Assembly: GCF_000026545.1 (NCBI RefSeq)
Contig: NC_011601.1
From: Escherichia coli O127:H6 str. E2348/69
GTDB taxonomy: Bacteria > Pseudomonadota > Gammaproteobacteria > Enterobacterales > Enterobacteriaceae
DNA length: 64,000 nucleotides
Reading direction: 5' to 3' (one strand)
A program made the translations under genes and the position numbers. The stretch's first letter is position 1. Every line of letters begins with the position of its first letter. Positions 40,810 to 63,604 of the stretch are shown piece by piece. Under the pieces are notes generated by a model that searched no databases, was not told the DNA's origin, and saw only the letters and a program-made list of their open reading frames with translations.

Positions 40810-40828
40810 TGTCTGTGTAAGTTCACAG

Positions 40829-41900: not shown

Positions 41901-42146
41901 ACCCATACAATGTCTTGCCTCCTTGCAAAGAAGAGACTAACATCCGAATTGCTTAGGTTCGAACGTAGGCCTCAGGTTGATAGAAATATCGCCTGGGGCT
42001 TTTGTCCATCTGGAACCTCGCGAATGCTTAACGCCAGACAGCCTCAAGCACCCAACGCCATTCTATACCTGTTAATTTTCCCTGCGATGTTCACCTTTAA
42101 ATGCCGGAATGCTGCTCGCAAAATAAAAACGCCCCATCATTTCTGA
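40872..42146 (+). CDS. DDE-type (rve/integrase core) transposase with N-terminal HTH, IS481-family-like
   Basis: HTH (ISAASEAFGVSCRTLYWWRQ), DDE residues in GMDAIE / ITDNGKEF / ERFNRTLRE, and C-terminal KRPHKALALMTPVEY. The last ~80 codons of the 424-aa ORF may be read-through into flanking DNA. Confidence 0.7.
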   Translation: MQMQHLMVGYPKYYQTADYALRLSVMADIATMRMKALHFWDKHGISAASEAFGVSCRTLYWWRQLLNKEGPEGLIPHSKAPLVRRKKHWHPDVLKEIRRLRTELPNLGKEQIFVRLKPWCEQRYLACPSVSTIGRMIAAAHDKMRMIPVRLGSRGKALLVKKRSAKPRRPKHYRPVKTGELIGMDAIELRMGELRRYVITMIDECSNYALALAVPSLNSDIVNHFFSRAARLFPVGISQIITDNGKEFLGNFDKTLQEAAIKHLWTYPYTPKMNAICERFNRTLREQFIEFNEILLFEDLALFNQKLAEYLVLYNSKRPHKALALMTPVEYILKENKNCNMWWTHTMSCLLAKKRLTSELLRFERRPQVDRNIAWGFCPSGTSRMLNARQPQAPNAILYLLIFPAMFTFKCRNAARKIKTPHHF

Positions 42147-44695: not shown

Positions 44696-46494
44696 TAGTA
44701 GACATCTCGCTGATAACGGCGCTCTACGCGCAGCTCACTTAAAAATTCATCCGCCGCTTCGGTGTCCATGCCACCAAATTCGGCAATCACTTCCAGAAGT
44801 GCCTGCTCAACGTCTTTCGCCATGCGATTAGCGTCGCCGCAGACATAAATGTGGGCACCGTCATTGATCCAGCGCCACAGCTCTGCGCCCTGTTCGCGCA
44901 GTTTGTCTTGTACGTAAATTTTTTCTTTTTGATCGCGCGACCAGGCGAGATCGATGCGCGTCAGCACGCCTTCTTTGACGTAACGCTGCCATTCCACCTG
45001 GTAGAGGAAATCTTCCGTAAAGTGTGGGTTGCCAAAGAATAGCCAGTTTTTACCCGGCGCTTCGTCGGCAGCACGCTGCTGCATAAAGGCACGGAACGGC
45101 GCGATGCCGGTGCCAGGGCCAATCATGATCACCGGGGTTTCCGGATTGGTTGGCAGGCGGAAGTTGTCGTTATGTTCGATAAAGACGCGGACTTCACCCT
45201 CTTCTTCCACACGATCCGCGAGGAAGCTGGAGGCACCACCGGCACGGGCGCGGCCTTCCACGTCGCAACGCACCACACCAACGGTAACGTGCACTTCGTT
45301 CTCGACTTCCGCCTGCGAGGAGGCGATGGAATACAGGCGCGGGGTCAGCGGGCGCAGCAGATTAATCAGCGCTTCGGCATCCAGTTGCGCCGGAGAGAAA
45401 CGCACCATGTCGACAATCGGCGTCGTCGCGGCGTAATGCTGTAATTTCGCTTTATCGCCCACCAGCGGCAGCAGCGTTTCGCTGCGGGTAAGCGTGGCAT
45501 AGTTCTCAACAATGTTGGCGGTGTTAACGGTCAGTTCGAAGTGCCACTGTAGCGCTTCGTTCAGAGGCAACGTTTTGCCCTCGACGGTGACAGGTTCATC
45601 GCCTTTCAGCCACAGCAGTTCGACAAGTTCTTTCACCAGTGCCGGATCGTTCTGATACCAGACGCCCAGCGCGTCACCCGGCTGGTAACGCAGGCCAGAG
45701 TCACCTAAGTCAATTTCAATGTGACGAACGTCTTTTTCAGAGTTACGCCCGGTAATTTTCTGGTTAACAGAGAGGCTCGCCACCAGCGGCGCGTCTTTGC
45801 TATACGGGCTGGTGTGGATTTCATTTACCGTGCCAGTAGCGACGGATTGCGAAGGTGCCGCGACAGGCGCACGCGATTTAAGCGCATCAACCACGCGGGC
45901 GCGCCACTCGCTGGCAGCAGCCTGGTATTCAACATCGGCATCGACACGGTCGAGCAGGCGTTCACCGCCCAGTTCCGCCAGCTTACTGTCAAAATCTTTC
46001 CCGGACTGGCAGAAAAATTCATAAGAGCTATCGCCGAGGCTAAACACGGCAAACGCGGTGTTTTCCAGCTTTGACGCTTTTTTGGAGAACAGGAACTTAT
46101 GCAGCGCGACGGCTTCTTCCGGCGGTTCCCCTTCCCCTTGCGTTGACGTCACCACGATAAGCAGTTTTTCGCTGGCGATTTGTTTGAATTTATAGTCACC
46201 CGCGTTCACCAGCTTAACGTTCAGTTTTGCCGCTAATAAATCATCGCGTAATGCTTCAGCAACCCGGCGCGCATTGCCGGTTTGCGAGGCGGAGATAATA
46301 GTTATACCCGGCATTTCTGCGGCGGGCGCTGGCGTCGCTGCAAGCGCAGCAGGCTGCTGGTTGAGCACGCCCCAGAAATAGCCAGAAACCCAGGCAAGCA
46401 GGGTAGGAGTTAAATCGGTCGTGGCCGCCTGAAGGCGTGCCAGTTGCTCCGGGTTCAACGGAAGCAACGCGGAAGGTGGGACCTGTGTCGTCAT
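44695..46494 (-). CDS. cysJ: Sulfite reductase flavoprotein alpha subunit
   Basis: 599 aa, flavodoxin plus FNR-like domains. Confidence 0.95.
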
Positions 46495-46809
46495 GCGTTG
46501 TTATGTTCCAGTAAGCAAAGCTGTTTCTGCGCCCTGTCAGCGCCCATAAAACAGAAGAGAAGGTAAGGTTAACGGGGTGAACGGTGTGGATTAAAGACGG
46601 GATAGCGATAACTAATAACCAAATCGACTAACCTGTTTTAGCAATAGTCTTTAACAACAAAATAGATTAACCAACCCAATGAAAAACAAATGAATATTGC
46701 CCATCAATAAGATAAATCAGCGATTTTGCGCAACAAAGTCGTTTTAGATAATGCGAAAAAACAGCCTTTCCGGTACTCTACGGCGGTTTTATCGTCATGT
46801 AGAGAAATT

Positions 46810-47175
46810 ATGATGTCCACCACGTTATTTAAAGATTTCACCTTCGAAGCCGCTCACCGCTTGCCGCATGTCCCACAAGGGCATAAATGTGGTCGCCTGC
46901 ACGGGCATTCCTTTATGGTGCGACTGGAAATTACCGGGGAAGTCGATCCGCATACGGGCTGGATTATCGATTTCGCTGAACTGAAAGCGGCGTTTAAACC
47001 AACTTATGAGCGCCTCGATCACCATTATCTCAATGATATTCCAGGTCTGGAAAACCCAACCAGCGAAGTTTTAGCAAAATGGATTTGGGATCAGGTTAAA
47101 CCCGTTGTGCCGCTGTTAAGTGCGGTGATGGTAAAAGAAACCTGCACCGCAGGTTGTATCTATCGCGGCGAATGA
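46810..47175 (+). CDS. queD: 6-carboxy-5,6,7,8-tetrahydropterin synthase QueD (121 aa)
   Basis: [21 protein letters not shown]..., PTPS family; start set at the conserved ATG. Confidence 0.93.
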
Positions 47176-47252
47176 TAAGAGTGTGTCGGCGGTCAATTTC
47201 CCTTAAGTAACGCTATGTTAGGGTGTTGTGTTCTGGATATCTGGGGCATGAC

Positions 47253-48524
47253 ATGGAAGACGACTGCGACATTATTATTATCGGTGCCGGAATTGCTGGC
47301 ACCGCTTGCGCGTTACGCTGCGCGCGAGCGGGTTTATCCGTTTTGTTACTGGAACGAGCGGAGATTCCCGGCAGCAAAAATCTTTCCGGCGGGCGGCTAT
47401 ACACTCATGCGCTCGCGGAACTCCTCCCGCAATTTCACCTGACCGCGCCTCTTGAACGACGCATCACTCACGAAAGTCTTTCTCTGTTAACGCAAGATGG
47501 CGCAACGACGTTTTCCAGCTTACAGCCCGGCGGTGAATCCTGGAGTGTATTACGTGCACGATTCGATCCGTGGCTGGTTGCCGAAGCCGAAAAAGAAGGT
47601 GTCGAATGCATCCCCGGTGCGACGGTAGATGCACTGTATGAAGAAAACGGCAGGGTGTGTGGTGTCATTTGTGGTGACGATATTCTTCGCGCCCGTTATG
47701 TGGTGCTGGCAGAAGGTGCCAACAGCGTCCTGGCGGAACGCCACGGGTTAGTGACTCGTCCTGCTGGCGAAGCGATGGCATTGGGGATCAAAGAAGCGCT
47801 GGCGCTGGAACCATCCGCTATTGAAGAACGTTTTCATCTGGAGAATAACGAAGGCGCAGCGTTGCTGTTCAGCGGCGGAATCTGTGATGACTTACCCGGC
47901 GGCGCATTTCTTTATACTAATCAACAAACGCTCTCGTTAGGGATTGTTTGCCCGCTCTCCTCCCTTACGCAAAGTCGTGTTCCGGCAAGCGAGCTGCTGG
48001 CTCGCTTTAAAACGCATCCGGCAGTGCGCCCGCTTATCAAAAACACGGAATCACTGGAGTATGGTGCGCATCTGGTGCCAGAAGGTGGCCTGCGCAGTAT
48101 GCCGGTGCAATACGCCGGTAACGGCTGGCTGCTGGTGGGCGATGCGTTGCGCAGTTGCGTCAATACCGGAATTTCCGTGCGCGGTATGGATATGGCGCTA
48201 ACTGGCGCGCAGGCGGCGGCACAAACGCTGATAAGCGCCTGCCAGCACCGCGAGCCGCAAAATCTGTTTCCGCTTTATCATCACAACGTAGAGCGCAGCC
48301 TGCTGTGGGATGTTCTACAGCGTTATCAGCATGTTCCGGCGCTTTTGCAACGCCCTGGCTGGTATCGGGTGTGGCCTGGGTTAATGCAGGATATTTCCCG
48401 TGATTTATGGGATCAGGGGAATACACCTGTTCCACCGCTGCGCCAGTTGCTCTGGCGTCATTTACGTCGTCACGGCCTGTGGCATCTGACGGGCGATGTT
48501 ATCAGGAGTCTGCGATGTCTGTAG
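47253..48524 (+). CDS. ygcN: FixC-like FAD-dependent oxidoreductase (ETF-quinone oxidoreductase homologue) YgcN
   Basis: 423 aa, N-terminal FAD motif IIIGAGIAG. Confidence 0.9.
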   Translation: MEDDCDIIIIGAGIAGTACALRCARAGLSVLLLERAEIPGSKNLSGGRLYTHALAELLPQFHLTAPLERRITHESLSLLTQDGATTFSSLQPGGESWSVLRARFDPWLVAEAEKEGVECIPGATVDALYEENGRVCGVICGDDILRARYVVLAEGANSVLAERHGLVTRPAGEAMALGIKEALALEPSAIEERFHLENNEGAALLFSGGICDDLPGGAFLYTNQQTLSLGIVCPLSSLTQSRVPASELLARFKTHPAVRPLIKNTESLEYGAHLVPEGGLRSMPVQYAGNGWLLVGDALRSCVNTGISVRGMDMALTGAQAAAQTLISACQHREPQNLFPLYHHNVERSLLWDVLQRYQHVPALLQRPGWYRVWPGLMQDISRDLWDQGNTPVPPLRQLLWRHLRRHGLWHLTGDVIRSLRCL

Positions 48525-48775
48525 CCCGTAATCTCTGGCGCGCTGCCGATGCGCCGCACATTGTTCCGGCTGACTCCGTTGAGCGCCAGACGGCACAACG
48601 GTTGATTAACGCCTGTCCAGCAGGTCTTTTTTCGCTCACACCTGAAGGTGGCTTACGTGTTGATTATCACGGCTGCCTGGAGTGTGGCGCCTGCCGTTTG
48701 CTGTGCGACGAATCAACACTACAACAGTGGCGCTATCCGCCTTCCGGATTCGGCATCACCTACCGCTTTGGATAA
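48515..48775 (+). CDS. ygcO: FixX-like ferredoxin YgcO (86 aa)
   Basis: Small ferredoxin-like protein overlapping the ygcN 3' end, the typical fixCX arrangement. Confidence 0.88.
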   Translation: MSVARNLWRAADAPHIVPADSVERQTAQRLINACPAGLFSLTPEGGLRVDYHGCLECGACRLLCDESTLQQWRYPPSGFGITYRFG

Positions 48776-48791
48776 ATAATAAGGATAATTT

Positions 48792-49367
48792 ATGCCCCTC
48801 TTACACCTGCTCCGCCAGAATCCGGTGATTGCTGCCGTTAAAGATAATGCCAGCCTGCAACTGGCAATCGACTCTGAATGCCAGTTTATTTCCGTGTTGT
48901 ACGGCAATATCTGCACCATTAGTAATATCGTTAAAAAGATTAAGAACGCCGGGAAATATGCTTTTATTCATGTTGATTTGCTGGAAGGCGCGTCAAATAA
49001 AGAAGTGGTGATTCAGTTTTTGAAACTGGTGACCGAGGCGGACGGAATTATCAGTACCAAAGCCTCAATGCTGAAAGCAGCAAGAGCGGAAGGTTTTTTC
49101 TGTATTCATCGACTGTTTATTGTTGATTCGATTTCGTTTCACAACATTGATAAGCAAGTTGCGCAATCGAATCCGGATTGTATTGAGATCCTGCCAGGCT
49201 GCATGCCTAAAGTGCTGGGCTGGGTGACGGACAAAATCCGCCAACCGCTGATTGCTGGCGGGCTGGTGTGCGATGAAGAAGATGCGCGTAATGCGATTAA
49301 CGCGGGTGTTGTGGCGCTTTCCACCACGAATACTGGGGTCTGGACGTTAGCGAAAAAATTGCTTTGA
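48792..49367 (+). CDS. ygcP: GlpP-family (glycerol-3-phosphate-responsive-type) antiterminator-like protein YgcP
   Basis: 191 aa, GlpP/G3P_antiterm family by sequence resemblance. Confidence 0.88.
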   Translation: MPLLHLLRQNPVIAAVKDNASLQLAIDSECQFISVLYGNICTISNIVKKIKNAGKYAFIHVDLLEGASNKEVVIQFLKLVTEADGIISTKASMLKAARAEGFFCIHRLFIVDSISFHNIDKQVAQSNPDCIEILPGCMPKVLGWVTDKIRQPLIAGGLVCDEEDARNAINAGVVALSTTNTGVWTLAKKLL

Positions 49368-49402
49368 CGGGATAATCGTAACAAGTTGAATTTGGTGTGA
49401 TT

Positions 49403-49470
49403 TGTAGGCTGCACGCCACATCCGACATCCAGCGCCTGATGCGACGCTTGACGCGTCTTATCAGGCCTAC
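49403..49470. repeat. BIME-like pair of REP elements between ygcP and ygcQ
   Basis: gtaggctgcacgccacatccgacatcc... followed by a canonical REP gcctgatgcgacgcttgacgcgtcttatcaggcctac in the opposite orientation. Confidence 0.7.
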
Positions 49471-49514
49471 AAGTCCCCAGCCCAGAACCATCGGCAGGAT
49501 CATCCGGCAGCACG

Positions 49515-50375
49515 TTATTGGCAATCTGCGTGAATGTTTGTCACCAGTGCCTCCAGCACCACTTTCCAGTCATCAATCACGCCAACATCTGCCTGTGAAA
49601 ATACCGCTGCACTGGCGTCATGATTAATCGCCACCACAAACTTGCTATTGCGTACGCCCGCCATTAACGCTGCTGCGCCGGAAGCGCCAACAACAATACA
49701 CACCTCAGGTGCCAGCAGATGTCCGGAAATACCAATCACTTTTTCGGCATCAACGCCACCGTTCATCACTCGTGCCCGACTGTAGCCCACTTCGGCTCCC
49801 ATCTTTTCTGCCAGCATAGCGATTTCCTGGTTATCTGCCTCTCCGCCCTGCCCCACCACCAGCACCCGTCTGGCCTCAGCTAATGGGTCACGGGTAACAT
49901 TTTTCAGGTTTTCTATGCTGATAAGCCAGTCTGGAAGCGCGCCGGGGACAATGTTCAGTTGCTGCATCCCAGAGGGCAACGTGGCGTTTTTATCTGCTCC
50001 CGCCTGACGTGCCAGCGAAAGGCATAGCGGGCGTTTTTCTGTTTGCAGCGTCGCCGTTAGCGCATTTCCCCAGTGGGATTTGCGCACGCTTACGGTTGGA
50101 ATATCTAACGAAGTCACCTGGCAGATGCTTGCACCATGTAAACGCCAGGCCAGCCGGGTCGACAGTTCATCGCCAAACGTTCCCGGCGGAAAGAGAACAA
50201 CGTCCGCAGGCGTTCGTTGCCACTGTTCCACCAGCACATCCAGCACCTGTTCCGCAACCATCGGCTGTGGTTCTATTTGCCAATGTGCCAGGGTACAACC
50301 GCTGAAATCCTGCGCCGCCAGCCAGCTCGCTATTGCGGCATGTTCCTGATTTATTGTCACAATTGCGATATTCAT
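49515..50375 (-). CDS. ygcQ: Electron transfer flavoprotein alpha-subunit homologue (FixB-like) YgcQ
   Basis: 286 aa, ETF alpha family. Confidence 0.9.
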   Translation of the reverse strand: MNIAIVTINQEHAAIASWLAAQDFSGCTLAHWQIEPQPMVAEQVLDVLVEQWQRTPADVVLFPPGTFGDELSTRLAWRLHGASICQVTSLDIPTVSVRKSHWGNALTATLQTEKRPLCLSLARQAGADKNATLPSGMQQLNIVPGALPDWLISIENLKNVTRDPLAEARRVLVVGQGGEADNQEIAMLAEKMGAEVGYSRARVMNGGVDAEKVIGISGHLLAPEVCIVVGASGAAALMAGVRNSKFVVAINHDASAAVFSQADVGVIDDWKVVLEALVTNIHADCQ

Positions 50376-51151
50376 GGCTGCATCCTTTGGCGTAAATAGT
50401 CCTGCCATAGCTTTTGCGCTTTTTCTGCTACCGTTTGCCCATCAATCAGCGCCGCTCTGCGTCGTTGCTCTGGCCTTGCCAGTTGCAGGCACTGTATCGC
50501 TGGCGCTTCCGCGGCAACAGTTTCGCGGGTAATCTCCGCTTTCCCCGCCGCCATTCGCTGGCGCATTCCCGGTACTGGCAAGGCCACTTCACCACACTGA
50601 CGCACGGCAATCACCGCAGGCAAGCGAACCCGGCAACAGCGTACCCCATGTTCAGTACGCTGTTCGAGGGTGATAAACGGTGCGTCGAGAGTAAAGCGCT
50701 CCACCTGGGTGAAGCAGGGCCAGACCAGCATTTCCGCCAGCAAAAATGGCGTTTGCCCATTCTGCCCTTCGCTGCTTTGGCAGCCAGTAATTATCAGATC
50801 CAGCGGATTCTGGTACTGCCATTCGGCAATATGGCGAGCGACAAATTCCGGCGCAAAGCACAGATCTGCCGCCGTCTCCAGCAATACAGCGTCCTCAAAC
50901 CCAAGAGCCATGAGATAGCGCAGCCAGTGCAACGCCCGTTCATCCCCCATGCTCAACGCGGTTAAAGACATCGGCGTACCGTTTTTTCTCTGCGCCAACA
51001 GCAGCGCGGCGGCAGCCTGTTCATCGGCACCGAGTAAACTTCGCAGAAGCGAAACATCCGGTCCGATATTACCCTGAGCCGCCGCCTGCCACTCTTTTTC
51101 CGCCAGCATTCCGGCATCCGGTTCGGCTTTAAACGCTAACAGAATGTTCAT
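50372..51151 (-). CDS. ygcR: Electron transfer flavoprotein beta-subunit homologue (FixA-like) YgcR
   Basis: 259 aa, ETF beta family; 4-nt overlap with ygcQ. Confidence 0.9.
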   Translation of the reverse strand: MNILLAFKAEPDAGMLAEKEWQAAAQGNIGPDVSLLRSLLGADEQAAAALLLAQRKNGTPMSLTALSMGDERALHWLRYLMALGFEDAVLLETAADLCFAPEFVARHIAEWQYQNPLDLIITGCQSSEGQNGQTPFLLAEMLVWPCFTQVERFTLDAPFITLEQRTEHGVRCCRVRLPAVIAVRQCGEVALPVPGMRQRMAAGKAEITRETVAAEAPAIQCLQLARPEQRRRAALIDGQTVAEKAQKLWQDYLRQRMQP

Positions 51152-52466
51152 TCGCACCTCCTACATTTCCCGCCGCCACCAGCGGGAGTGCTTTGGTTTC
51201 TGGTGCCCATAGCCAGGTCACAACAAAACCAACCAACAACACTGCCGCCAGGAGCAATAAGGTGACTTGCATTCCCCACTGCGCCAGCACCCACGGCAGC
51301 AGGCCCGTACTTACTGCCGCGCCCAACCGACTCATGGCGGTGGCAAAACCGACGCCCAGCGAGCGAATGTCAGTAGGAAAACTTTCCGCAGGCAAAATGC
51401 CCACCAGATTACTGACTGCCGAAATGGTGGTGCTGAAGAGAACAAAAAGCAGCAGCGTTAATGAACTGCCGGAAGGCAAACAGGCCATCACTACCAGCGT
51501 TGCCGCCAGCAGCAAAAAACTTCCCAGTAAAAATCTGCGATGTGCCAGCAGGTGCGTCAGAACTAATCCCAGCAGCGCGCCCACAATTAACAACGCATTA
51601 AGCATCAGGCTGGCAGTCAGCGCATCTTCCAGACCAATAGTTTGGGCGATGGTCGGCAGCCAGGTATAAATCACAAACCATGGGATTACGAGGCAGACAA
51701 AGAAGACGCTGTTAAACGCCGTGCGCCGCCAGTAGCGCGAAGAGAACAAGGTTTTGATGTGTTTATGGGTCGCCGTTGCCACTTCATCGCCCAGTAAAAC
51801 ATGCGGGCCAAAATAGCGATGAACGATAGCGTGAGCTTCTGCAAAACGCCCCTGGCGCAGTAGCCAGCGTGGCGATTCCGGCGTGCCCCAACGTAGCAGC
51901 GTAATCAGCAAAGCTGGTAACGCCGCTGATGCCAGCAGCCAGCGCCAGGCCTCCGGGCTTTCGGAAATAAAGTGATGTCCGGCAATACTTGCCAGCACAT
52001 AGCCTACGGTCCACACCACACTGAATGCGCCCAGCAAAATACCGCGATGGCGGCGCGGGGAAAATTCAGCCAGCAAGGTGTGACCGACTGAGTAATCGCC
52101 TCCCAGACCAATGCCGATCAAAATGCGCAATCCAATAAGATGCTCTGGCGTGGTGGCAAAAAATTGCAAGAACGAAGCGAGCGTAATCAGCATAAAACTG
52201 AAGGTGAAGATTTTTTGCCGCCCGATATGGTCGGAGATCCACCCCAAAACCAGGCTGCCAAGAAACAAACCAAGTAACGCCGAGCCGCCGATCATTCCCG
52301 CCATAAACGGCGTCAGTTGCATGGCGGGCGTAAGCTGAATAATGGCGTAACCAATGACGCCGAGAACATAACCGTCGGTCAGGTGTGCGCCGAAAGTGAG
52401 CGCAGCAATGCGGCAGTGAAAACGGTTAAGTGGTAAATCATCCATTCGCACCGGTGAAGTGTTCAT
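51129..52466 (-). CDS. ygcS: MFS sugar-porter-family transporter YgcS (445 aa)
   Basis: Polytopic MFS protein; start set at MNTSPVRMDD. Confidence 0.9.
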   Translation of the reverse strand: MNTSPVRMDDLPLNRFHCRIAALTFGAHLTDGYVLGVIGYAIIQLTPAMQLTPFMAGMIGGSALLGLFLGSLVLGWISDHIGRQKIFTFSFMLITLASFLQFFATTPEHLIGLRILIGIGLGGDYSVGHTLLAEFSPRRHRGILLGAFSVVWTVGYVLASIAGHHFISESPEAWRWLLASAALPALLITLLRWGTPESPRWLLRQGRFAEAHAIVHRYFGPHVLLGDEVATATHKHIKTLFSSRYWRRTAFNSVFFVCLVIPWFVIYTWLPTIAQTIGLEDALTASLMLNALLIVGALLGLVLTHLLAHRRFLLGSFLLLAATLVVMACLPSGSSLTLLLFVLFSTTISAVSNLVGILPAESFPTDIRSLGVGFATAMSRLGAAVSTGLLPWVLAQWGMQVTLLLLAAVLLVGFVVTWLWAPETKALPLVAAGNVGGANEHSVSV

Positions 52467-52559
52467 CTTTACCCCTTCATTGTCCGGTAATAAGAACGGC
52501 TTCTCGCCTGAGAAGCCGAAAAGGCAACGCCCTGTCATCGAGGAACGCTGCCTCACACA

Positions 52560-54014
52560 TTATTTTTCAATCGGATAGATAGTACCCGTATTCATAATGC
52601 CGTTAGGATCGAACTGTTTTTTCAGACCTTCCAGCAACGTCCACGCGCTGCCGTGTTCCAGTTTGCTCCAGTGAACGCGATGTTTACCGATACCGTGGTG
52701 GTGCACCATCGAACCGCCGAGACGAATGGTTTCTTCGCAGATGATTTTGTTGAGCGGATTGTGGTACTTGTCGATTTCCTCTTCCGGCTTACAGTCAACG
52801 ACGTTGTAGTCGTAGACGAAGTACATGTTGGTGCCGTTCTGATAGCTATGAGAGGAGTGACCGCCCAGCATGGTGATGTCGTCGGCGTGCGGGAACTCGG
52901 TACGAATACGGTTAATAACGCTTTCGTAGATTTCGTGAATGCAGCTCCAGCAGCCGGACACTTCAGTGGTAAAGCCCATGTTGCCGGTTTTGAGGATCTG
53001 CACACGTTCGGCAGCCACTTTATCCGGTCCCCAGTTCAGGTTGTTAAACCAGGTTTCGATCAGCTTGCTGTCCACGCGCTGGCACTGCGGGTAGCACGCC
53101 ACGATTTCAGCAATCCCTTCACCCGTCGCCTTCGCAATGCGAGGGTTACCTTCAGCCATAAAGATCAGCACGCATTTGCCGTCGGCAAAATGGGTGAAGT
53201 GTTGGGTGCCATCTTCAGCATCATACAAACGAGCAATCGACGGACGATACCCTTCCACCATGATTTCACGCAGGATGTTGAAGCCGGTTTTCATGTCTTC
53301 CAGCACATAGCCATAGAAGAGATTGTTTTCCGGCGTAAATTTGAAGATTTTCACTGTGACTTCAGTGATATAGCACAGTGCACCTTCGTTGCCGATGATG
53401 ATATGACGAATGTCCGGGCCAGCCGCGCGACGTGGCACGTTTTTAATGCGTGTGACGGTGCCATCTGCCAGCACCGCTTCCAGACCAACGACCATATCCT
53501 CGATTGCGCCGTAGAGTGTGGAAAACTGCCCGATACTGCGGGTCGCCACCAGGCCGCCCATCTGCGCCAGCGGCTTTGACTGCGGAGAATGCCCCGTGGT
53601 GTAACCTTTTTCACGCAGCGCGTTTTCCAGCACCTCCAGCGGAACGCCACATTGCGCCGTGGCCTGCATATTCTCAATATCAATATTAATGATTTGATTC
53701 ATGGCGGAGCCGTCGAGCACCACCGAGTTTTCCACAACGGTTTCCAGCCCACCTTCGGTGGCGGAAGCACCGGTACGTGGCACACCGTTAATTTTGTGCG
53801 CATTCATAAAATTCAGCACACGGGATACTTGTTCTGTGGAACCGAGTTTTACGACCGCTGCCGGAATTGGCAAAGTATAAATGCCATGAATATCCGGAAA
53901 TTTACGAAAACGGTCAATACTGTTCTTCTTTAATACTGTTTCATCGGTAATTACGCGATCTGCACCAACAATTTCCTTTAGCTGGTCGACAATCGCTACG
54001 CGAGATAAAGACAT
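52560..54014 (-). CDS. ygcU: FAD-linked oxidase (alkyl-DHAP-synthase / D-lactate dehydrogenase-like) YgcU
   Basis: 484 aa, FAD-binding PCMH domain. Confidence 0.9.
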   Translation of the reverse strand: MSLSRVAIVDQLKEIVGADRVITDETVLKKNSIDRFRKFPDIHGIYTLPIPAAVVKLGSTEQVSRVLNFMNAHKINGVPRTGASATEGGLETVVENSVVLDGSAMNQIINIDIENMQATAQCGVPLEVLENALREKGYTTGHSPQSKPLAQMGGLVATRSIGQFSTLYGAIEDMVVGLEAVLADGTVTRIKNVPRRAAGPDIRHIIIGNEGALCYITEVTVKIFKFTPENNLFYGYVLEDMKTGFNILREIMVEGYRPSIARLYDAEDGTQHFTHFADGKCVLIFMAEGNPRIAKATGEGIAEIVACYPQCQRVDSKLIETWFNNLNWGPDKVAAERVQILKTGNMGFTTEVSGCWSCIHEIYESVINRIRTEFPHADDITMLGGHSSHSYQNGTNMYFVYDYNVVDCKPEEEIDKYHNPLNKIICEETIRLGGSMVHHHGIGKHRVHWSKLEHGSAWTLLEGLKKQFDPNGIMNTGTIYPIEK

Positions 54015-54083
54015 AGTAATTCCTTCCTGATAATAAAAATGGAATAGTTATTAATAAGAGAAAACAGAAACCACCGTTATGAA

Positions 54084-54869
54084 TTAGCGCACTAAATAAC
54101 CGCCATCAACCACTAATAAATGTCCGTTGACATAATTCGATGCCGGACTTGCGAGGAATACGGCTGCACCCATTAAATCCTGAGTATCACCCCAACGGTT
54201 TGCCGGAATATGATCAAGAACACGCTGGTTAGTTTCTGGATTACTACGGGTCGCCAGCGTAATATCGGTTGCATAATAACCAGGAGCAATACCATTCACC
54301 TGAATATTATATTGGCCTAATTCATCGCAATAGGCTTTGGTGAATCCGGCAAGAGCATGTTTAGTGGCAGAATAAGCAGGTGACCATTGACCACCTAAGT
54401 AAGAGAACAATGAACAGATATTAATGATTTTACCGCTTTTCTGCGGGATCATAATTTTTGCCGCTTCGTAGCTTAACTCGAATGCGGCGGTCAGGTTCAC
54501 GTCAATCATCGGGTCCCAGTCGGCACGACCAAAGTCCAGCACCTTATTCAGCTTACAAATACCGGCATTGTTAACCAGAATATCTACGGTACCGAAGCGC
54601 TCACAGCAGGCAGCGATAATCTTCTGCGGCGCGCCTTCTGCGGTGATATCCACCTGCATAAAATCAACTTCGACACCCTGTTTTTCAATCATTTCCTTTG
54701 TTTCGCCGTTATCTTTGACGAAACTAGGAATAAAGACATTTGCGCCAGCTTTGGCCAACGCCATGGCAAATGCCTGGCCTAAACCGCTATTCCCGCCAGT
54801 AACAATTGCTGTTTTACCTTTCAGGGAGAAAAAATCCATTGAGAACGCATTGAGAGATTCGATTGACAT
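54084..54869 (-). CDS. ygcW: Short-chain dehydrogenase/reductase YgcW (261 aa)
   Basis: TGGNSGLG Rossmann motif; start at MSIES with a GGAG ribosome-binding site. The longer six-frame ORF runs through a terminator hairpin and was rejected. Confidence 0.9.
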   Translation of the reverse strand: MSIESLNAFSMDFFSLKGKTAIVTGGNSGLGQAFAMALAKAGANVFIPSFVKDNGETKEMIEKQGVEVDFMQVDITAEGAPQKIIAACCERFGTVDILVNNAGICKLNKVLDFGRADWDPMIDVNLTAAFELSYEAAKIMIPQKSGKIINICSLFSYLGGQWSPAYSATKHALAGFTKAYCDELGQYNIQVNGIAPGYYATDITLATRSNPETNQRVLDHIPANRWGDTQDLMGAAVFLASPASNYVNGHLLVVDGGYLVR

Positions 54870-54893
54870 AGTTAGCTCCAATTTCCGTAAGGC

Positions 54894-54940
54894 AAAAAAA
54901 AAGAAAGGTAACTTCCCCCGCGAGAGGGAAGTTACCTTTC
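54894..54940 (-). terminator. Strong intrinsic-terminator-like hairpin plus U9 tract in the ygcW leader (minus strand)
   Basis: 15-bp perfect stem gaaaggtaacttccc / gggaagttacctttc with 8-nt loop. The plus strand has A9 just 5' of the stem, so a minus-strand transcript has U9 immediately 3'. It lies about 25 nt upstream of the ygcW start codon. Confidence 0.6.
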
Positions 54941-54993
54941 TCATTATCTCTGGTAACTGGAGATAATTTTTAGCATAAGGACATAACTGCTAA

Positions 54994-55009
54994 TGTGATC
55001 GTAATCACA
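54994..55009. promoter_or_regulatory. Consensus CRP-binding site in the ygcW / yqcE divergent intergenic region
   Basis: TGTGAtcgtaaTCACA is a perfect match to the TGTGA-N6-TCACA CRP core. Confidence 0.6.
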
Positions 55010-55186
55010 GTGTGATGTTCGTATTGTCAAATAATTTAAAAAAGCAGAAGCGTGATTACTCTCACACAACACCTCTGCTTTCCATGTTATTTCTTATTGC
55101 AATTACTAGAGACCTGAGAAAAGTAATCCACCTGAAAGGGCGGCTTACTTTTCTCTTTTTTTGTCTATTACAAATGGGAATACGAT

Positions 55187-56464
55187 ATGCAACACAACTC
55201 ATATCGCCGTTGGATAACCCTCGCGATAATTAGTTTTAGCGGCGGCGTTAGTTTCGACCTGGCTTATTTACGTTATATTTATCAAATTCCCATGGCAAAA
55301 TTTATGGGATTCAGCAATACCGAGATAGGTTTAATAATGAGTACCTTTGGTATTGCGGCCATTATTTTCTATGCCCCTAGCGGCGTTATTGCCGATAAAT
55401 TTTCACATCGCAAAATGATTACTTCCGCGATGATCATTACCGGATTACTGGGTCTGTTAATGGCAACATATCCACCGCTGTGGGTAATGCTCTGTATTCA
55501 GGTCGCCTTTGCGATAACGACGATTTTAATGCTGTGGTCGGTGTCGATTAAAGCCGCATCGTTGCTGGGCGATCATAGCGAGCAAGGGAAAATTATGGGC
55601 TGGATGGAAGGGCTGCGCGGCGTCGGTGTAATGTCGCTGGCGGTGTTTACCATGTGGGTCTTTTCTCGCTTTGCACCGGATGACAGCGCCAGCCTGAAAA
55701 CGGTCATTATTATCTATAGTGTGGTTTACATTCTGCTGGGCATTTTGTGTTGGTTTTTTGTTAGCGATAACAACAATCTGCGCAGTGCCAATAACGAAGA
55801 AAAACAGTCATTCCAGCTTAGCGACATCCTGGCCGTTTTGCGCATCAGCACCACCTGGTATTGCAGCATGGTGATTTTTGGTGTCTTCACCATCTACGCC
55901 ATTCTGAGTTACTCCACCAACTATCTGACCGAAATGTACGGCATGTCGTTGGTGGCGGCGAGCTACATGGGGATTGTGATCAACAAAATCTTCCGCGCGC
56001 TGTGCGGCCCACTTGGCGGCATTATCACCACCTACAGTAAAGTGAAATCCCCTACCCGCGTGGTCCAAATCCTTTCCATCATCGGTTTGCTGGCGTTGAC
56101 AGCCCTGCTCGTCACGAACTCTAACCCGCAATCGGTCGCGATGGGGATTGGCCTGATTTTATTACTGGGATTCACCTGTTACGCCTCACGCGGGCTGTAC
56201 TGGGCCTGCCCTGGCGAAGCGAGAACACCGTCTTACATTATGGGCACCACGGTAGGTATTTGTTCGGTGATTGGATTTCTGCCGGATGTCTTCGTTTACC
56301 CGATTATCGGCTACTGGCAAGACACCCTGCCCGCTGCAGAAGCCTACCGCAACATGTGGCTAATGGGCATGGCGGCGCTTGGCATGGTGATCATCTTTAC
56401 CTTTTTGCTGTTCCAAAAAATTCGTACTGCTGATAGCGCCCCCGCAATGGCTAGCAGCAAGTAA
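55187..56464 (+). CDS. yqcE: MFS transporter YqcE
   Basis: 425-aa 12-TM MFS protein. Confidence 0.9.
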   Translation: MQHNSYRRWITLAIISFSGGVSFDLAYLRYIYQIPMAKFMGFSNTEIGLIMSTFGIAAIIFYAPSGVIADKFSHRKMITSAMIITGLLGLLMATYPPLWVMLCIQVAFAITTILMLWSVSIKAASLLGDHSEQGKIMGWMEGLRGVGVMSLAVFTMWVFSRFAPDDSASLKTVIIIYSVVYILLGILCWFFVSDNNNLRSANNEEKQSFQLSDILAVLRISTTWYCSMVIFGVFTIYAILSYSTNYLTEMYGMSLVAASYMGIVINKIFRALCGPLGGIITTYSKVKSPTRVVQILSIIGLLALTALLVTNSNPQSVAMGIGLILLLGFTCYASRGLYWACPGEARTPSYIMGTTVGICSVIGFLPDVFVYPIIGYWQDTLPAAEAYRNMWLMGMAALGMVIIFTFLLFQKIRTADSAPAMASSK

Positions 56465-56490
56465 GCCAGGAAAATTACAGGAGAAAAATC

Positions 56491-57969
56491 ATGTCGAAAA
56501 AATACATCATAGGGATTGATGGCGGAAGTCAGAGCACAAAAGTGGTGATGTACGATCTGGAAGGTAATGTGGTTTGCGAAGGCAAAGGCTTATTGCAGCC
56601 GATGCACACGCCAGATGCCGATACCGCAGAACATCCTGACGACGATTTATGGGCATCACTATGTTTTGCCAGTCACGATTTGATGAGCCAGTTTGCCGGA
56701 AATAAAGAAGATATTGTCGGCATTGGCCTGGGCTCAATCCGTTGCTGCCGTGCGTTATTGAAAGCCGATGGTACGCCAGCCGCGCCGTTGATTAGCTGGC
56801 AGGATGCACGCGTTACACGCCCTTACGAACACACTAATCCTGACGTGGCCTATGTCACCTCTTTTTCGGGTTATCTGACACATCGCTTAACCGGCGAGTT
56901 TAAAGACAATATCGCCAACTATTTTGGTCAGTGGCCGGTGGATTATAAGAGCTGGGCATGGAGCGAAAATGCCGCGGTAATGGAAAAGTTTAATATCCCC
57001 CGCCAGATGCTTTTTGACGTGCAAATGCCAGGCACTGTTCTTGGGCATATCACACCACAAGCTGCGCTGGCGACACATTTCCCGGCTGGGCTGCCGGTTG
57101 TTTGTACCACCAGTGATAAACCGGTAGAAGCTCTGGGAGCCGGGTTACTGGATGATGAAACGGCGGTAATTTCTCTTGGCACCTACATCGCGTTGATGAT
57201 GAACGGCAAAGCACTGCCGAAAGATCCGGTCGCGTACTGGCCGATTATGTCTTCTATTCCGCAAACATTGCTGTATGAAGGTTACGGTATTCGCAAAGGC
57301 ATGTGGACGGTGAGCTGGCTGCGCGACATGTTAGGCGAGTCGTTAATTCAGGATGCCAAAGCACAGGATCTTTCACCGGAAGATTTGCTCAACAAAAAAG
57401 CGTCTTGCGTGCCACCTGGTTGTAATGGGCTGATGACGGTGCTGGACTGGCTGACCAATCCGTGGGAACCGTACAAACGCGGAATTATGATCGGCTTTGA
57501 TTCCAGCATGGATTACGCATGGATATATCGTTCGATACTGGAAAGCGTGGCGCTGACGCTGAAGAACAATTACGACAATATGTGTAATGAAATGAATCAC
57601 TTTGCAAAGCATGTGATCATTACTGGCGGCGGTTCGAACAGCGATCTGTTTATGCAGATTTTTGCCGACGTGTTCAACCTTCCGGCACGCCGTAACGCCA
57701 TTAATGGTTGTGCAAGTCTGGGGGCAGCGATCAATACGGCGGTAGGTCTGGGGCTATACCCGGATTACGCAACGGCTGTCGACAAAATGGTTCGCGTGAA
57801 AGATATCTTTATGCCTGTTGAGAGCAACGCCAAACGCTACGACGCGATGAATAAAGGCATTTTCAAAGACCTAACCAAACACACTGATGTGATCCTGAAA
57901 AAATCGTATGAAGTGATGCATGGGGAATTGGGGAATGCGGATTCGATCCAGAGCTGGTCGAATGCGTAA
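56491..57969 (+). CDS. ygcE: FGGY-family carbohydrate kinase YgcE
   Basis: 492 aa, FGGY N- and C-domains. Confidence 0.9.
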   Translation: MSKKYIIGIDGGSQSTKVVMYDLEGNVVCEGKGLLQPMHTPDADTAEHPDDDLWASLCFASHDLMSQFAGNKEDIVGIGLGSIRCCRALLKADGTPAAPLISWQDARVTRPYEHTNPDVAYVTSFSGYLTHRLTGEFKDNIANYFGQWPVDYKSWAWSENAAVMEKFNIPRQMLFDVQMPGTVLGHITPQAALATHFPAGLPVVCTTSDKPVEALGAGLLDDETAVISLGTYIALMMNGKALPKDPVAYWPIMSSIPQTLLYEGYGIRKGMWTVSWLRDMLGESLIQDAKAQDLSPEDLLNKKASCVPPGCNGLMTVLDWLTNPWEPYKRGIMIGFDSSMDYAWIYRSILESVALTLKNNYDNMCNEMNHFAKHVIITGGGSNSDLFMQIFADVFNLPARRNAINGCASLGAAINTAVGLGLYPDYATAVDKMVRVKDIFMPVESNAKRYDAMNKGIFKDLTKHTDVILKKSYEVMHGELGNADSIQSWSNA

Positions 57970-58088
57970 GTGAGATAAACAGTGCCGGGTAGATGATTAA
58001 TCCCGGCATATTCACGTTTCCACCACAAAATACCGGGTAACCACTGCTGAATATTGTTCTCTCCTGAGTAGCGTTTATGCTTTAATTG

Positions 58089-58102
58089 CTAAACCGATTT
58101 AA
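58089..58102. promoter_or_regulatory. Candidate ScrR (LacI-family) operator upstream of scrK
   Basis: ctaaaccgatttaa matches the perfect palindromes upstream of scrY (ctaaaccggtttag) at 12 of 14 positions. Confidence 0.35.
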
Positions 58103-58133
58103 TTAGTTTAGCAATTAGTATATTGGAGCCTTT

Positions 58134-59054
58134 ATGAGCGCAAGAGTATGGGTACTCGGTGATGCGGTTGTTGATTTATTACCCGAAAGCCAGGGGAGAC
58201 TACTACAGTGTCCTGGCGGGGCGCCTGCTAATGTTGCAGTCGGTATCGCAAGGCTGGGGGGGAAAAGTGCCTTTATTGGCAAAGTTGGCGATGATCCTTT
58301 CGGTCGCTTTATGTATCAGACACTGAGTACAGAAAATGTTGATACACGTTATATGTCTCTTGATCCTCAACAACGCACCTCAATTGTGGCTGTAGGACTT
58401 GATGAGCAAGGAGAAAGAAACTTTACCTTTATGGTACGCCCAAGTGCCGATCTTTTTTTACAACCTGATGACCTTCCTACATTTGGGCCGGGTGAATGGC
58501 TCCATCTTTGTTCCATTGCGCTCAGTGCAGAACCTTCCCGAAGTACCGCATTTCTGGCTATGGAGAAAATACGTCAGGCTGGCGGAAACATCAGTTTTGA
58601 TCCCAATATCCGCAGCGATCTCTGGCAGAGTGAAGCGCTATTAAGAAAATACCTTGATCGCGCGCTTTCGCTGGCGAATATCGCTAAATTGTCCGAAGAA
58701 GAGTTGCTATTCATCAGTGGCGAAAGCCAGGTTCAGCAAGGCGCATATTCATTAGTACAACGTTATTCGTTGACTTTATTGCTTATCACACAAGGAAAAA
58801 ATGGCGTACTTGTGTATTTTCAGGGGCAGTTTATCCACTATCCCGCCAAACCTGTTTCTGTCGTCGATACGACCGGGGCAGGAGATGCTTTTGTCGCTGG
58901 ATTACTTGCAGGTCTGGCTGATTCTGGAATACCAACAAATACCAGACAGCTTGAACGAATCATTGCACAAGCTCAGATTTGTGGTGCTCTGGCGACCACG
59001 GCTAAAGGCGCGATGACCGCCTTACCCCGACAACACGATCTCCCTTCACAATAG
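58134..59054 (+). CDS. scrK: Fructokinase (PfkB family) ScrK
   Basis: 306 aa; VLGDAVVDLLPE...LLQCPGGAPANVAVG...DTTGAGDAFVAGLLAGL is highly similar to enterobacterial ScrK. Confidence 0.85.
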   Translation: MSARVWVLGDAVVDLLPESQGRLLQCPGGAPANVAVGIARLGGKSAFIGKVGDDPFGRFMYQTLSTENVDTRYMSLDPQQRTSIVAVGLDEQGERNFTFMVRPSADLFLQPDDLPTFGPGEWLHLCSIALSAEPSRSTAFLAMEKIRQAGGNISFDPNIRSDLWQSEALLRKYLDRALSLANIAKLSEEELLFISGESQVQQGAYSLVQRYSLTLLLITQGKNGVLVYFQGQFIHYPAKPVSVVDTTGAGDAFVAGLLAGLADSGIPTNTRQLERIIAQAQICGALATTAKGAMTALPRQHDLPSQ

Positions 59055-59085
59055 TGATCCTGCTGTTGTATCTGTAACCCGATTT

Positions 59086-59101
59086 GTCGTGCCTGTCACA
59101 T
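59086..59101. promoter_or_regulatory. Candidate CRP site upstream of scrY
   Basis: TGTCGtgcctgTCACA has one perfect half-site and one imperfect half-site with correct spacing. Confidence 0.3.
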
Positions 59102-59104
59102 TTA

Positions 59105-59118
59105 CTAAATCGGTTTAG
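59105..59118. promoter_or_regulatory. Candidate ScrR operator (near-perfect palindrome) upstream of scrY
   Basis: ctaaatcggtttag, a 14-bp palindrome with one mismatch. Confidence 0.4.
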
Positions 59119-59163
59119 CGAAAATAATTGCTCTGGCTAAAAAGTCAGCTTTATTATCAACAC

Positions 59164-59177
59164 CTAAACCGGTTTAG
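59164..59177. promoter_or_regulatory. Candidate ScrR operator (perfect 14-bp palindrome) upstream of scrY
   Basis: ctaaaccggtttag is perfectly self-complementary and lies about 45 bp upstream of the scrY start. Confidence 0.45.
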
Positions 59178-59197
59178 CATTTTAGCAATTTTTATAA

Positions 59198-60739
<1,542 letters not shown>

Positions 60740-60747
60740 TACCAGAC

Positions 60748-60770
60748 AGCCTCACGGATGTGAGGCTTTT
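60748..60770 (+). terminator. Intercistronic hairpin plus T-tract between scrY and scrA (possible partial terminator / attenuator)
   Basis: agcctcac-ggat-gtgaggct followed by ttt. Confidence 0.4.
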
Positions 60771-60799
60771 ACTGAAATAACAATGAATTAGAGGGTTAT

Positions 60800-63579: not shown

Positions 63580-63604
63580 GGGTTTTGAATTACGGATCCT
63601 CGTC

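Follow-up and report, generated by a model that had tools for sequence, protein, structure and literature searches.

The ygc/yqcE genes of Escherichia coli form a conserved, CRP-activated catabolic system probably wired like the Bacillus glp regulon

In Bacillus subtilis, the glpD, glpFK, and glpTQ leaders each carry a GlpP site, and GlpP together with glycerol-3-phosphate causes antitermination at their terminators (PMC9604022). A protein of the GlpP family, YgcP, is also encoded in the ygc/yqcE gene cluster of Escherichia coli O127:H6 strain E2348/69, which was analyzed here within a stretch of 64,000 nucleotides of contig NC_011601.1 (the window). The cluster was compared with the glp regulon and with three enzyme systems: the alkyl-dihydroxyacetone phosphate (DHAP) synthases (AGPS) of ether-lipid synthesis, the LctBCD complex of Acetobacterium woodii, and the fixABCX and ydiQRST modules of E. 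coli itself. The ygc/yqcE genes make up three transcription units of a conserved, CRP-activated catabolic system, probably regulated along the lines of the Bacillus glp regulon but directed at a different compound. The regulatory model is the better supported part of this reading, and the chemistry is offered as a working hypothesis.

The evidence for the regulatory model centers on the 317-bp intergenic region between ygcW and yqcE, which holds two CRP sites and two homologous leader RNAs:

54894-54960, minus strand: ygcW leader RNA (covariance model R1, 65.8 bits, E = 8e-12)
54994-55009, no strand assigned: CRP site 1, perfect consensus TGTGATCGTAATCACA, centered ~41.5 bp upstream of the predicted ygcW transcription start (~54960)
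55051-55066, no strand assigned: CRP site 2, CGTGATTACTCTCACA, one mismatch, centered ~41 bp upstream of the predicted yqcE transcription start (~55099)
55099-55162, plus strand: yqcE leader RNA (R1, 59.1 bits, E = 2e-10)

The two leader RNAs in front of ygcW and yqcE are previously unannotated and were missed by the initial annotation of this DNA. Leaders were searched for with a regular expression and then with the covariance model R1, which gave exactly two full-length hits in the window, both in the ygcW/yqcE intergenic region. Each leader is ~65 nt long and follows the layout 5'-(A)RUUACY-AGAGA-N3-4-UGAGAAARGUAAY...terminator 3' arm...U7-9, in which RUUACY can pair with RGUAAY, the middle of the terminator 5' arm, to form an alternative hairpin (P1). 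P1 comprises 6 to 7 bp, overlaps the terminator 5' arm, and encloses a GAGA-rich loop with two GAGA-like repeats. In the ygcW leader, AGUUACC (54958-54952) pairs with GGUAACU (54936-54930) around the loop AGAGAUAAUGAGAAA, and a terminator scan placed a 19-bp stem (54942-54901, minus strand) and a U-run (U9, 54900-54892) between the predicted start and the ATG. In the yqcE leader, AUUACU (55102-55107) pairs with AGUAAU (55122-55127) around the loop AGAGACCUGAGAAA and carries a G-C to A-U compensatory change; its terminator (55116-55155, with a U-run, U7, at 55156-55162) was found by reading the plus strand.

Folding gave a minimum free energy of −34.3 kcal/mol (z = −6.3) for the ygcW leader, with P1 alone at −6.7, and of −21.8 kcal/mol (z = −3.8) for the yqcE leader, with P1 alone at −1.4. 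Because the terminator folds far more strongly than P1, termination should be the default state and P1 should need a stabilizing factor; once stabilized, P1 would block the overlapping terminator. Neither leader matched an Rfam model at E ≤ 1 in a scan of positions 46400 to 58300, which returned only a subthreshold naRNA4 (CssrE) match and a spurious snoRNA match. No description of the leaders was found in the full-text literature, a body that leaves most subscription journals outside its coverage. The ygcW leader is present, without an annotated feature, in 5,063 of 5,426 E. coli genomes and is at least 99% identical in 4,870.

Conservation of the leader extends well beyond E. coli. Eighty genome loci were gathered by alignment of YgcP orthologues, the cluster genes were then mapped, and 124 distinct leader instances were found, with the element in almost every locus. 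R1 gave 130 hits at E ≤ 1e-5 in 77 sources, and an intrinsic terminator likewise occurs in 130 leaders of other loci. Leaders stand upstream of ygcW, yqcE/ygcE, ygcU, and BCCT or OpuC transporter genes adjoining the YgcP orthologues in Enterobacterales, Vibrio, Photobacterium, Clostridia, Sporomusa, halophilic Bacilli, and Anaerolineae, with weaker matches in Spirochaetes, Saccharopolyspora, and Fodinisporobacter. Both E. coli leaders and those of other phyla share the RNA site GUUACY-(N)-GAG-N-GAGAAARGUAAC.

Covariation was assessed on 127 distinct leaders aligned to the terminator model and hence not fitted to P1. In this set 95.3% of P1 cells were paired, versus at most 55% when the partner was slid. 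The terminator is 92% paired. One P1 pair switches between G-C and A-U (92/33, one cell unpaired), another between U-A and C-G (101/17), and a third between A-U and G-C (125/2), while two further pairs vary solely to G-U. The A-U variant of the first occurs in E. coli-clade yqcE leaders and also in clostridial BCCT leaders, and therefore arose more than once. One degenerate case was seen in Limnobaculum eriocheiris (L040, 13860-13986), where the ygcW/yqcE intergenic region is down to ~127 bp with a single bidirectional terminator; this region has no CRP sites, promoters, or P1 5' strand, and the locus is apparently decaying.

A metagenome scan for the RNA pattern, independent of YgcP, returned mainly E. 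coli-type loci. On contigs L193 (6231-11581), L122 (388-2017), and L094, a leader (55.6 to 59.9 bits) precedes genes for an MttB-family methyltransferase, a PanB-like hydroxymethyltransferase, and an OpuC-type ABC transporter. Relatives of MttB that have no pyrrolysine are known to demethylate quaternary amines. A second MttB homologue and a choline-dehydrogenase-like fragment of an iron-containing alcohol dehydrogenase lie near such a leader-bearing operon; a 192-amino-acid open reading frame (ORF) in L193, considered as a possible YgcP, was rejected as an iron-containing alcohol dehydrogenase fragment. Pattern matches with neither ygc genes nor an R1 hit (e.g., L089, L091, L099, and L110) are probably due to chance.

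The candidate for the stabilizing factor is encoded within the cluster. YgcP residues 12 to 184 align with positions 1 to 173 of the 173-position Pfam model PF04309 (G3P_antiterm, E = 2.7e-62), and PDB entry 3kts is a relative (E = 2e-27). Firmicute orthologues are 53 to 62% identical to YgcP and always lie beside ygcW, ygcE, or ygcU. In the window and in the gathered loci, ygcP is the only cluster gene never preceded by an R1 element. Since YgcP matches PF04309 over its full length and its gene alone lacks the element, as does Bacillus glpP, the leaders probably answer to the cluster's own YgcP. By analogy with GlpP, YgcP would respond to a phosphorylated intermediate that the kinase YgcE produces, expected to be a compound other than glycerol-3-phosphate.

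Several features of this arrangement recur in the Bacillus glp regulon. In both, a PF04309 gene sits beside genes for an FGGY kinase, a flavin dehydrogenase, and transporters; the 5' leaders of the regulated operons consist of a purine-rich (GGAGA-repeat) site followed by an intrinsic terminator; the regulator gene itself is not behind a terminator; and catabolite control is laid on top, by CcpA in Bacillus and by CRP in the ygc system. For example, at the canonical glpP-glpF-glpK-glpD locus of Priestia megaterium, the glpF and glpD leaders begin AAGUUAAU just past the −10 element and carry GGAGAAUNGGAGA, with tandem GGAGA repeats, before an overlapping terminator. The architecture is thus the same but the sequence differs: R1 does not match the Priestia glpF or glpD leader, and Rfam has no model for canonical glp leaders. 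YgcP likewise forms a separate clade, ~30% identical to Listeria GlpP versus 53 to 62% for its own orthologues. The enzymes and carriers also differ, in that YgcE is not GlpK, an AGPS-like YgcU and the short-chain dehydrogenase/reductase (SDR) YgcW stand in place of GlpD, and the transporters are of major facilitator superfamily (MFS), BCCT, or OpuC type rather than GlpF or GlpT. Unlike the Bacillus glp regulon, the ygc system is found in Gram-negative bacteria. Because its targets are ygcWUSRQ and yqcE-ygcE and because R1 misses the glp leaders, the ygc system is best regarded as a paralogous system and not as the glycerol regulon.

Upstream of the leaders, both half-sites of CRP site 1 are exact consensus and the site is kept across Enterobacteriaceae; site 2 reads GTGAnnnnnnTCACA in other genera. 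Elements of the form TGnTA..., resembling −10 elements and conserved in many genera, lie 7 to 9 nt upstream of the leader elements, and transcription is predicted to start near 54960 for ygcW and 55099 for yqcE. With these predicted starts each CRP site lies ~41 bp upstream, so both promoters would have class II geometry. Across the genera of Enterobacterales, the CRP sites, the −10 elements, and both leaders have all been conserved. Published data agree with the sites, including a Kd of 1.7 nM for CRP binding in vitro by Footprint-seq (PMC12871828), a chromatin immunoprecipitation (ChIP) peak for CRP in vivo in enterotoxigenic E. coli (ETEC) (PMC4287617), a top PhyloScan CRP prediction for the region (PMC1794230), and Crp-activated yqcE-ygcE expression that responds to carbon source (PMC8085971). 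Genomic SELEX listed RpoD promoters and an H-NS flag at the promoter region (PMC3946193). The CRP link proposed in the initial annotation is therefore borne out by a perfect and a one-mismatch site and by published affinity, ChIP, and expression data. Its description of a catabolic-looking, CRP-linked cluster with an electron transfer flavoprotein (ETF) and ETF:quinone oxidoreductase module likewise agrees with the gene families and the CRP sites.

The ten cluster genes, from RefSeq annotation and the ORF table, are as follows:

47253-48524, plus strand: ygcN, FixC-like FAD oxidoreductase of the ETF:quinone oxidoreductase type
48515-48775, plus strand: ygcO, FixX-like ferredoxin
48792-49367, plus strand: ygcP, GlpP-family protein (PF04309), proposed RNA-binding antiterminator
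49515-50375, minus strand: ygcQ, ETF alpha-like subunit
50372-51151, minus strand: ygcR, ETF beta-like subunit
51129-52538, minus strand: ygcS, MFS transporter resembling sugar porters and aromatic-acid and organic-cation carriers; NiaP homologue
52560-54014, minus strand: ygcU, FAD_binding_4/FAD-oxidase_C flavoenzyme of the GlcD superfamily with the AGPS active-site signature
54084-54869, minus strand: ygcW, SDR near KduD and gluconate 5-dehydrogenase
55187-56464, plus strand: yqcE, MFS_1 transporter
56491-57969, plus strand: ygcE, FGGY-family kinase

All ten ORFs are intact in the window, which matches the E2348/69 genome at 100% identity, and they form three transcription units, ygcNOP (plus), ygcWUSRQ (minus, with short or overlapping gaps), and yqcE-ygcE (plus). 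The RefSeq start of ygcW at 54869 (261 amino acids, MSIESLN) is the one kept in other genera; the longest ORF (286 amino acids, start 54944) would open inside the leader terminator. At least 80% of a 13-kb query (window positions 46000 to 59000) is present in 5,052 of 5,426 complete E. coli genomes. The initial annotation had placed these genes correctly, although its stretch, starting at 46810, takes in the unrelated queD (46813-47175), and the cluster itself begins at 47253. NCBIfam and Pfam scans upheld its family calls of a FixABCX-like ETF, an FAD-linked oxidase, an SDR, two MFS transporters, an FGGY kinase, and a GlpP-like protein. Its statement that the substrate is not established also stands, as no substrate or biochemical assignment for the cluster was found in the full-text literature, where the limited coverage of subscription journals means that absence is not proof. 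The sole experimental phenotype found there for any cluster gene is that overexpression of YgcS yields up to 68% more nicotinamide mononucleotide (NMN) from nicotinamide (PMC8601175).

None of the ten proteins reached an NCBIfam equivalog cutoff, and function is therefore not transferable. All four components of a FixABCX-type module are encoded, namely EtfB, EtfA, and FixC-like and FixX-like proteins, with scores below equivalog or subfamily cutoffs. YgcN scored 380 bits with PRK10015 (cutoff, 466) and 363 bits with FixC, both below cutoff; YgcO scored 81 bits with FixX (cutoff, 166); YgcQ scored 62 to 73 bits with ETF-alpha models, with Pfam ETF_alpha matched in orthologues; and YgcR scored 37 to 43 bits with ETF-beta models. 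On these scores YgcNOQR are divergent paralogues, not FixABCX proper. YgcS matched TIGR00895 (181 bits), TIGR00879 (141 bits), and the organic-cation model TIGR00898 (135 bits), and YqcE matched TIGR00893, the D-galactonate transporter family, at 69 bits. YgcW came close to the KduD model (349.9 bits; cutoff, 369) and to PDB entry 4z9y (E = 2.5e-58). YgcE scored 143 bits with XylB (cutoff, 380) and 141 bits with LsrK (cutoff, 528), and its PDB relatives were LsrK (5ya0, E = 1.5e-29) and glycerol kinases (~1e-19). As judged from these matches, FGGY membership of YgcE is clear, and no subfamily of known substrate matched above a curated cutoff.

Comparison across loci reduces the system to an invariant core of YgcP, YgcW, YgcE, YgcU, and a transporter. 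Identity to the E. coli proteins across phyla is 66 to 80% for YgcW (Firmicutes), 45 to 58% for YgcE, and 64 to 72% for YgcU; YqcE orthologues are 68 to 100% identical in Enterobacterales and ~26% in Vibrio and Spirochaete clusters. In ~85 loci the core is never joined by a conserved isomerase, epimerase, aldolase, or dehydratase. Since no further conserved enzyme accompanies the core, the three enzymes must suffice to reach central metabolism. Genes ygcR and ygcQ follow ygcU in anaerobes, Vibrio, and E. coli-like Enterobacteriaceae, with the order ygcU-ygcR-ygcQ kept in Clostridia and Vibrio, and are not beside the cluster in Serratia, Pantoea, Erwinia, Ewingella, halophilic Bacilli, Fodinisporobacter, and Saccharopolyspora. 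No extra conserved genes were found in the ETF-less loci of Serratia, Pantoea, Erwinia, Ewingella, Halobacillus, Thalassobacillus, and Saccharopolyspora. FixCX-like genes stand beside the cluster only in Enterobacterales. Outside that order the cluster transporter is nearly always a BCCT or an OpuC/ProV-type ABC system; the OpuC-type ATPase passes the cutoff of the betaine/proline/choline subfamily, and the BCCT proteins score best with betaine, choline, and carnitine models.

The electron transfer genes resemble two described arrangements. In LctBCD (PDB 7qh2), as in the ygc cluster, the gene for a GlcD-family flavoenzyme lies beside a dedicated EtfB/EtfA pair, with docking presumed. YgcQ, however, has no ferredoxin domain, and the FixCX-like pair of E. 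coli points to quinone rather than to NAD/ferredoxin confurcation. In anaerobic Firmicutes and Chloroflexi (L002, 422-3909; L064 to L066, L068, L071, L072, and L080), operons also encode an LctD-like enzyme as a second FAD dehydrogenase, together with an EtfB of its own and an EtfA that has a ferredoxin domain; the clostridial enzyme has SEHGVG and matches LctD. The presence of this second enzyme suggests that a D-2-hydroxyacid may be formed somewhere in the pathway of the anaerobe clusters. The fixABCX (with cai) and ydiQRST modules of E. coli are likewise built of paralogous FixAB and FixC/FixX components, and in each case the module is devoted to a single flavoenzyme from a secondary catabolic pathway. 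The fix/cai system is tied to a quaternary-ammonium compound and to the BCCT carrier CaiT. Its flavoenzyme partner and that of ydi are of the acyl-CoA dehydrogenase type (CaiA and YdiO), whereas the ygc partner is AGPS-like; unlike fix/cai, the ygc cluster has no genes for CoA handling, and YgcNOQR score far below the Fix equivalog cutoffs.

The key flavoenzyme, YgcU, is closer in sequence to an ether-lipid synthase than to sugar or lactate dehydrogenases. Its best PDB relatives are the mammalian (4bby, E = 3.7e-40) and Dictyostelium (2uuu, E = 3.4e-38) alkyl-DHAP synthases, with which it shares FAD_binding_4 and FAD-oxidase_C architecture, compared with 1e-25 for glycolate oxidase and 8e-22 for LctD in the same search. 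The sequence GGSMVHHHGIG of YgcU aligns with GGSLSHHHGVG of AGPS, where glycolate oxidase (9qgz) has GEHGVG, and TNMYFVY and PSIARLYD align with the AGPS motifs of Tyr578 and Arg419. A comparison of 4bby against two mutant chains, 4bca and 4bc7, located these two residues, and the residue roles cited for AGPS rest in part on such PDB mutant chains and on PMC13019191. His616 and His617 are AGPS active-site residues (PMC13019191). The AGPS catalytic signature (the HHH loop His615-617, Tyr578, and Arg419) is thus present in YgcU, and among 79 orthologues HHHG and the Tyr are found in all and RLYD, with the Arg, in 74. The (S/G)EHG(I/V)G motif of D-2-hydroxyacid dehydrogenases (GlcD, LctD, D-LDH, and D2HGDH) does not occur in YgcU, which has HHHG instead of the EHG type of LctD. 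The substrate class implied by the likeness is a C1-substituted DHAP. AGPS is biosynthetic and redox neutral, forming alkyl-DHAP from acyl-DHAP and a fatty alcohol, while YgcU, a cytoplasmic bacterial protein whose gene sits with those for a kinase, an SDR, and a dedicated ETF in a catabolic CRP-dependent operon, would carry out a net redox reaction. The nearest characterized relatives of YgcW, KduD and gluconate 5-dehydrogenase, oxidize a hydroxyl next to a terminal CH2OH.

The sequence evidence points away from a plain sugar or polyol and towards a substituted-glycerol or betaine-type compound. We therefore lean, with confidence only slightly better than even, towards a glp-like circuit in which CRP and YgcP antitermination with a phosphorylated inducer control the catabolism of such a compound. 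In this circuit cAMP-CRP would open both divergent promoters, and YgcP loaded with the phosphorylated intermediate from YgcE would bind P1 and allow readthrough by RNA polymerase, giving positive-feedback induction with ygcP itself outside the loop. The substrate would enter through YqcE or YgcS, or through BCCT or OpuC carriers in other taxa. YgcW would oxidize the penultimate hydroxyl (C2) of a terminal 1,2-diol (glyceryl) group, and YgcE would phosphorylate the primary hydroxyl before or after that step, yielding an intermediate like 1-substituted DHAP. YgcU could then use flavin chemistry to remove or oxidize the C1 substituent, which is probably not a sugar but a group of the betaine or quaternary-ammonium type, and release a C3 phosphate for glycolysis. 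Electrons would pass from YgcU via the ETF YgcQR and the FixCX-like YgcNO to quinone, with another acceptor in aerobes that have no ETF genes.

A more specific version, which we consider a rather long shot, is that YgcW, YgcE, and YgcU form a route for breaking nonhydrolyzable glyceryl ethers or C1-substituted glycerols with a betaine head group, such as glyceryl-N,N,N-trimethylhomoserine, and that the GlpP family is a wider class of ligand-gated antiterminators reading tandem GAGA loops with at least two RNA specificities. The proposed source of such a compound is betaine lipids (diacylglyceryl-N,N,N-trimethylhomoserine [DGTS]) of algae, fungi, and lower plants. A 1-substituted DHAP would arise once C2 is oxidized and C3 phosphorylated, and from it an AGPS-like flavin N5 adduct would expel the substituent. 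Hydrolysis would lead to DHAP, or to phosphohydroxypyruvaldehyde and then 3-phosphoglycerate, with the ETF reoxidizing the flavin, and the freed betaine could be exported or demethylated by MttB-type enzymes. Other candidate substrates were set aside: erythritol, tetritols, and pentitols (no isomerases and the wrong transporter type), glycerol (E. coli has glpK and glpD, and YgcE is insufficiently GlpK-like), glycerophosphocholine (its hydrolysis by GlpQ/UgpQ makes such a pathway unnecessary), carnitine (no CoA enzymes and a single hydroxyl), and 2,3-dihydroxypropane-1-sulfonate (DHPS; anionic and not a BCCT substrate).

The substrate proposed in the initial annotation, a polyol or sugar-like compound, leads to a different pathway, in which a polyol, sugar, or sugar acid is taken up, phosphorylated by YgcE, and oxidized by the SDR and an ordinary GlcD/GlpD-like YgcU, with electrons passing via the ETF to quinone. 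Pathways for sugars and sugar acids typically include FGGY kinases and SDRs like KduD and gluconate 5-dehydrogenase, transporter-model scores link YgcS to sugar porters and YqcE to the D-galactonate transporter family, EtfAB-coupled GlcD-family enzymes are known (LctD), and CRP activation is typical of secondary carbon sources. Such a substrate nevertheless fits poorly and we regard it as unlikely overall, given a core with no conserved isomerase, epimerase, aldolase, or dehydratase, the BCCT and OpuC rather than sugar carriers of other phyla, and a YgcU that has HHH for EHG and is 15 orders of magnitude nearer AGPS than glycolate oxidase; in clusters that do encode a genuine LctD-like enzyme, its gene is an additional one, distinct from ygcU and paired with an ETF of its own. 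The cluster could also be a cryptic, H-NS-silenced remnant of a horizontally acquired Firmicute-like operon with no current substrate in the gut. The listing of the promoter region with H-NS, the lack of a phenotype or substrate in the literature searched, the very high identity to Firmicute orthologues, which suggests horizontal transfer, and the degenerate intergenic region of L. eriocheiris would all suit this idea. It is made improbable by the ten intact ORFs and the wide retention of the 13-kb region, by a leader at least 99% identical in thousands of genomes, by the conservation of CRP sites, −10 elements, and both leaders across Enterobacterales genera, and by the response of yqcE-ygcE expression to Crp and carbon source (PMC8085971).

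The leaders might alternatively not be controlled by a protein at all, being a metabolite riboswitch or plain terminators or insulators of divergent promoters, in which case YgcP would be a ribulose-phosphate-binding-barrel enzyme with a phosphorylated intermediate as its substrate. The fold of PF04309 proteins is TIM-barrel-like and its relatives are enzymes, the structures 1vkf and 3kts are annotated only by homology, and the leaders on L193, L094, and L122 have no ygcP gene on the same fragment. Besides the terminator, however, the leader offers only a 6- to 7-bp hairpin with a purine-rich loop of 14 to 19 nt, a size that would not accommodate a typical ligand pocket, and P1 alone is worth just −1.4 to −6.7 kcal/mol. 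An invariant 5' flank (GUUAC...GAG...GAGAAA) across phyla is unexpected for plain terminators, the layout mirrors the leaders of experimentally established GlpP targets (PMC9604022), and ygcP alone is never preceded by the element. Together these make the idea highly improbable.

Several observations nonetheless weigh against the glp-like circuit and its proposed chemistry. Co-regulation of the whole cluster, as assumed in the initial annotation, holds for ygcWUSRQ and yqcE-ygcE, but a scan of the window detected neither a CRP site nor a leader element for ygcNOP. The H-NS flag at the promoter region (PMC3946193) means that the cluster may be largely silent in laboratory strains. No report of RNA binding by YgcP, of leader termination in vivo, or of enzyme activity was found in the literature searched. 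High conservation of the leader leaves covariation on three pair positions, and kinship inflates the cell counts. Because the genome loci were gathered through YgcP, co-occurrence of the RNA and the protein is partly by construction; contig L193 has the leader with no YgcP found within 12 kb, and the metagenome contigs are too short for testing the linkage. The cluster transporters of E. coli itself are MFS proteins, not BCCT or OpuC systems. YgcU (484 amino acids) is without most of the AGPS N terminus, its residue 60 aligning to AGPS residue 215 with ~150 residues unmatched, and the AGPS N-terminal domain of ~200 residues helps form the lipid-binding tunnel. Finally, AGPS is redox neutral and the dedicated ETF argues for net oxidation, which implies that YgcU chemistry cannot be simply AGPS-like and would be a modified, net-oxidative reaction.

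Other features of the window lie around the cluster. In E2348/69 a sucrose regulon directly follows ygcE (58134-64000), between ygcE and queE:

58134-59054, no strand given: scrK
59222-60739, no strand given: scrY porin
60800-62170, no strand given: scrA, phosphotransferase system IIBC component
62170-63579, no strand given: scrB hydrolase
from 63605, no strand given: scrR, cut by the window end

In strain K-12 the ygcE-queE gap holds a CRISPR array, and type I-E cas genes with a CRISPR array lie between iap and cysH. No type I-E CRISPR repeats were found anywhere in the window, and the iap-cysH interval (40658-41906) holds a Hok/Gef toxin gene and an integrase-core pseudogene; E2348/69, a B2-type strain, appears to be without the type I-E cas genes and array there. 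The convergent ygcP/ygcQ gap (49384-49467) contains the naRNA4 (CssrE) match (39.9 bits, below the gathering threshold of 59.5), which we take to be a repetitive extragenic palindromic (REP)-type element and which probably serves as a 3' end or insulator for both operons. A CRP-like site at 30971-30986, TGTGACCGTGGTCGCA, is identical to a CRP ChIP target inside nlpD in ETEC (PMC4287617), and positions 1713 and 21371 carry two further CRP-like sites with one mismatch each.

Among the E. coli gene blocks that still have no known function, the ygc/yqcE cluster ranks with the larger ones, and ~93% of complete genomes have it. A portable ~65-nt leader fused to a reporter could act as a biosensor for the inducer, making this annotation gap testable. 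The leader is a candidate Rfam family and would extend GlpP-type control, so far studied only in Firmicute glycerol regulons, to Gram-negative bacteria and to a second RNA specificity. An AGPS-like YgcU found with betaine-type transporters suggests that a flavoenzyme chemistry known only in the ether-lipid synthesis of eukaryotes is also put to catabolic use, and such a role may bear on how betaine lipids or osmolytes are turned over in gut, marine, and hypersaline habitats.

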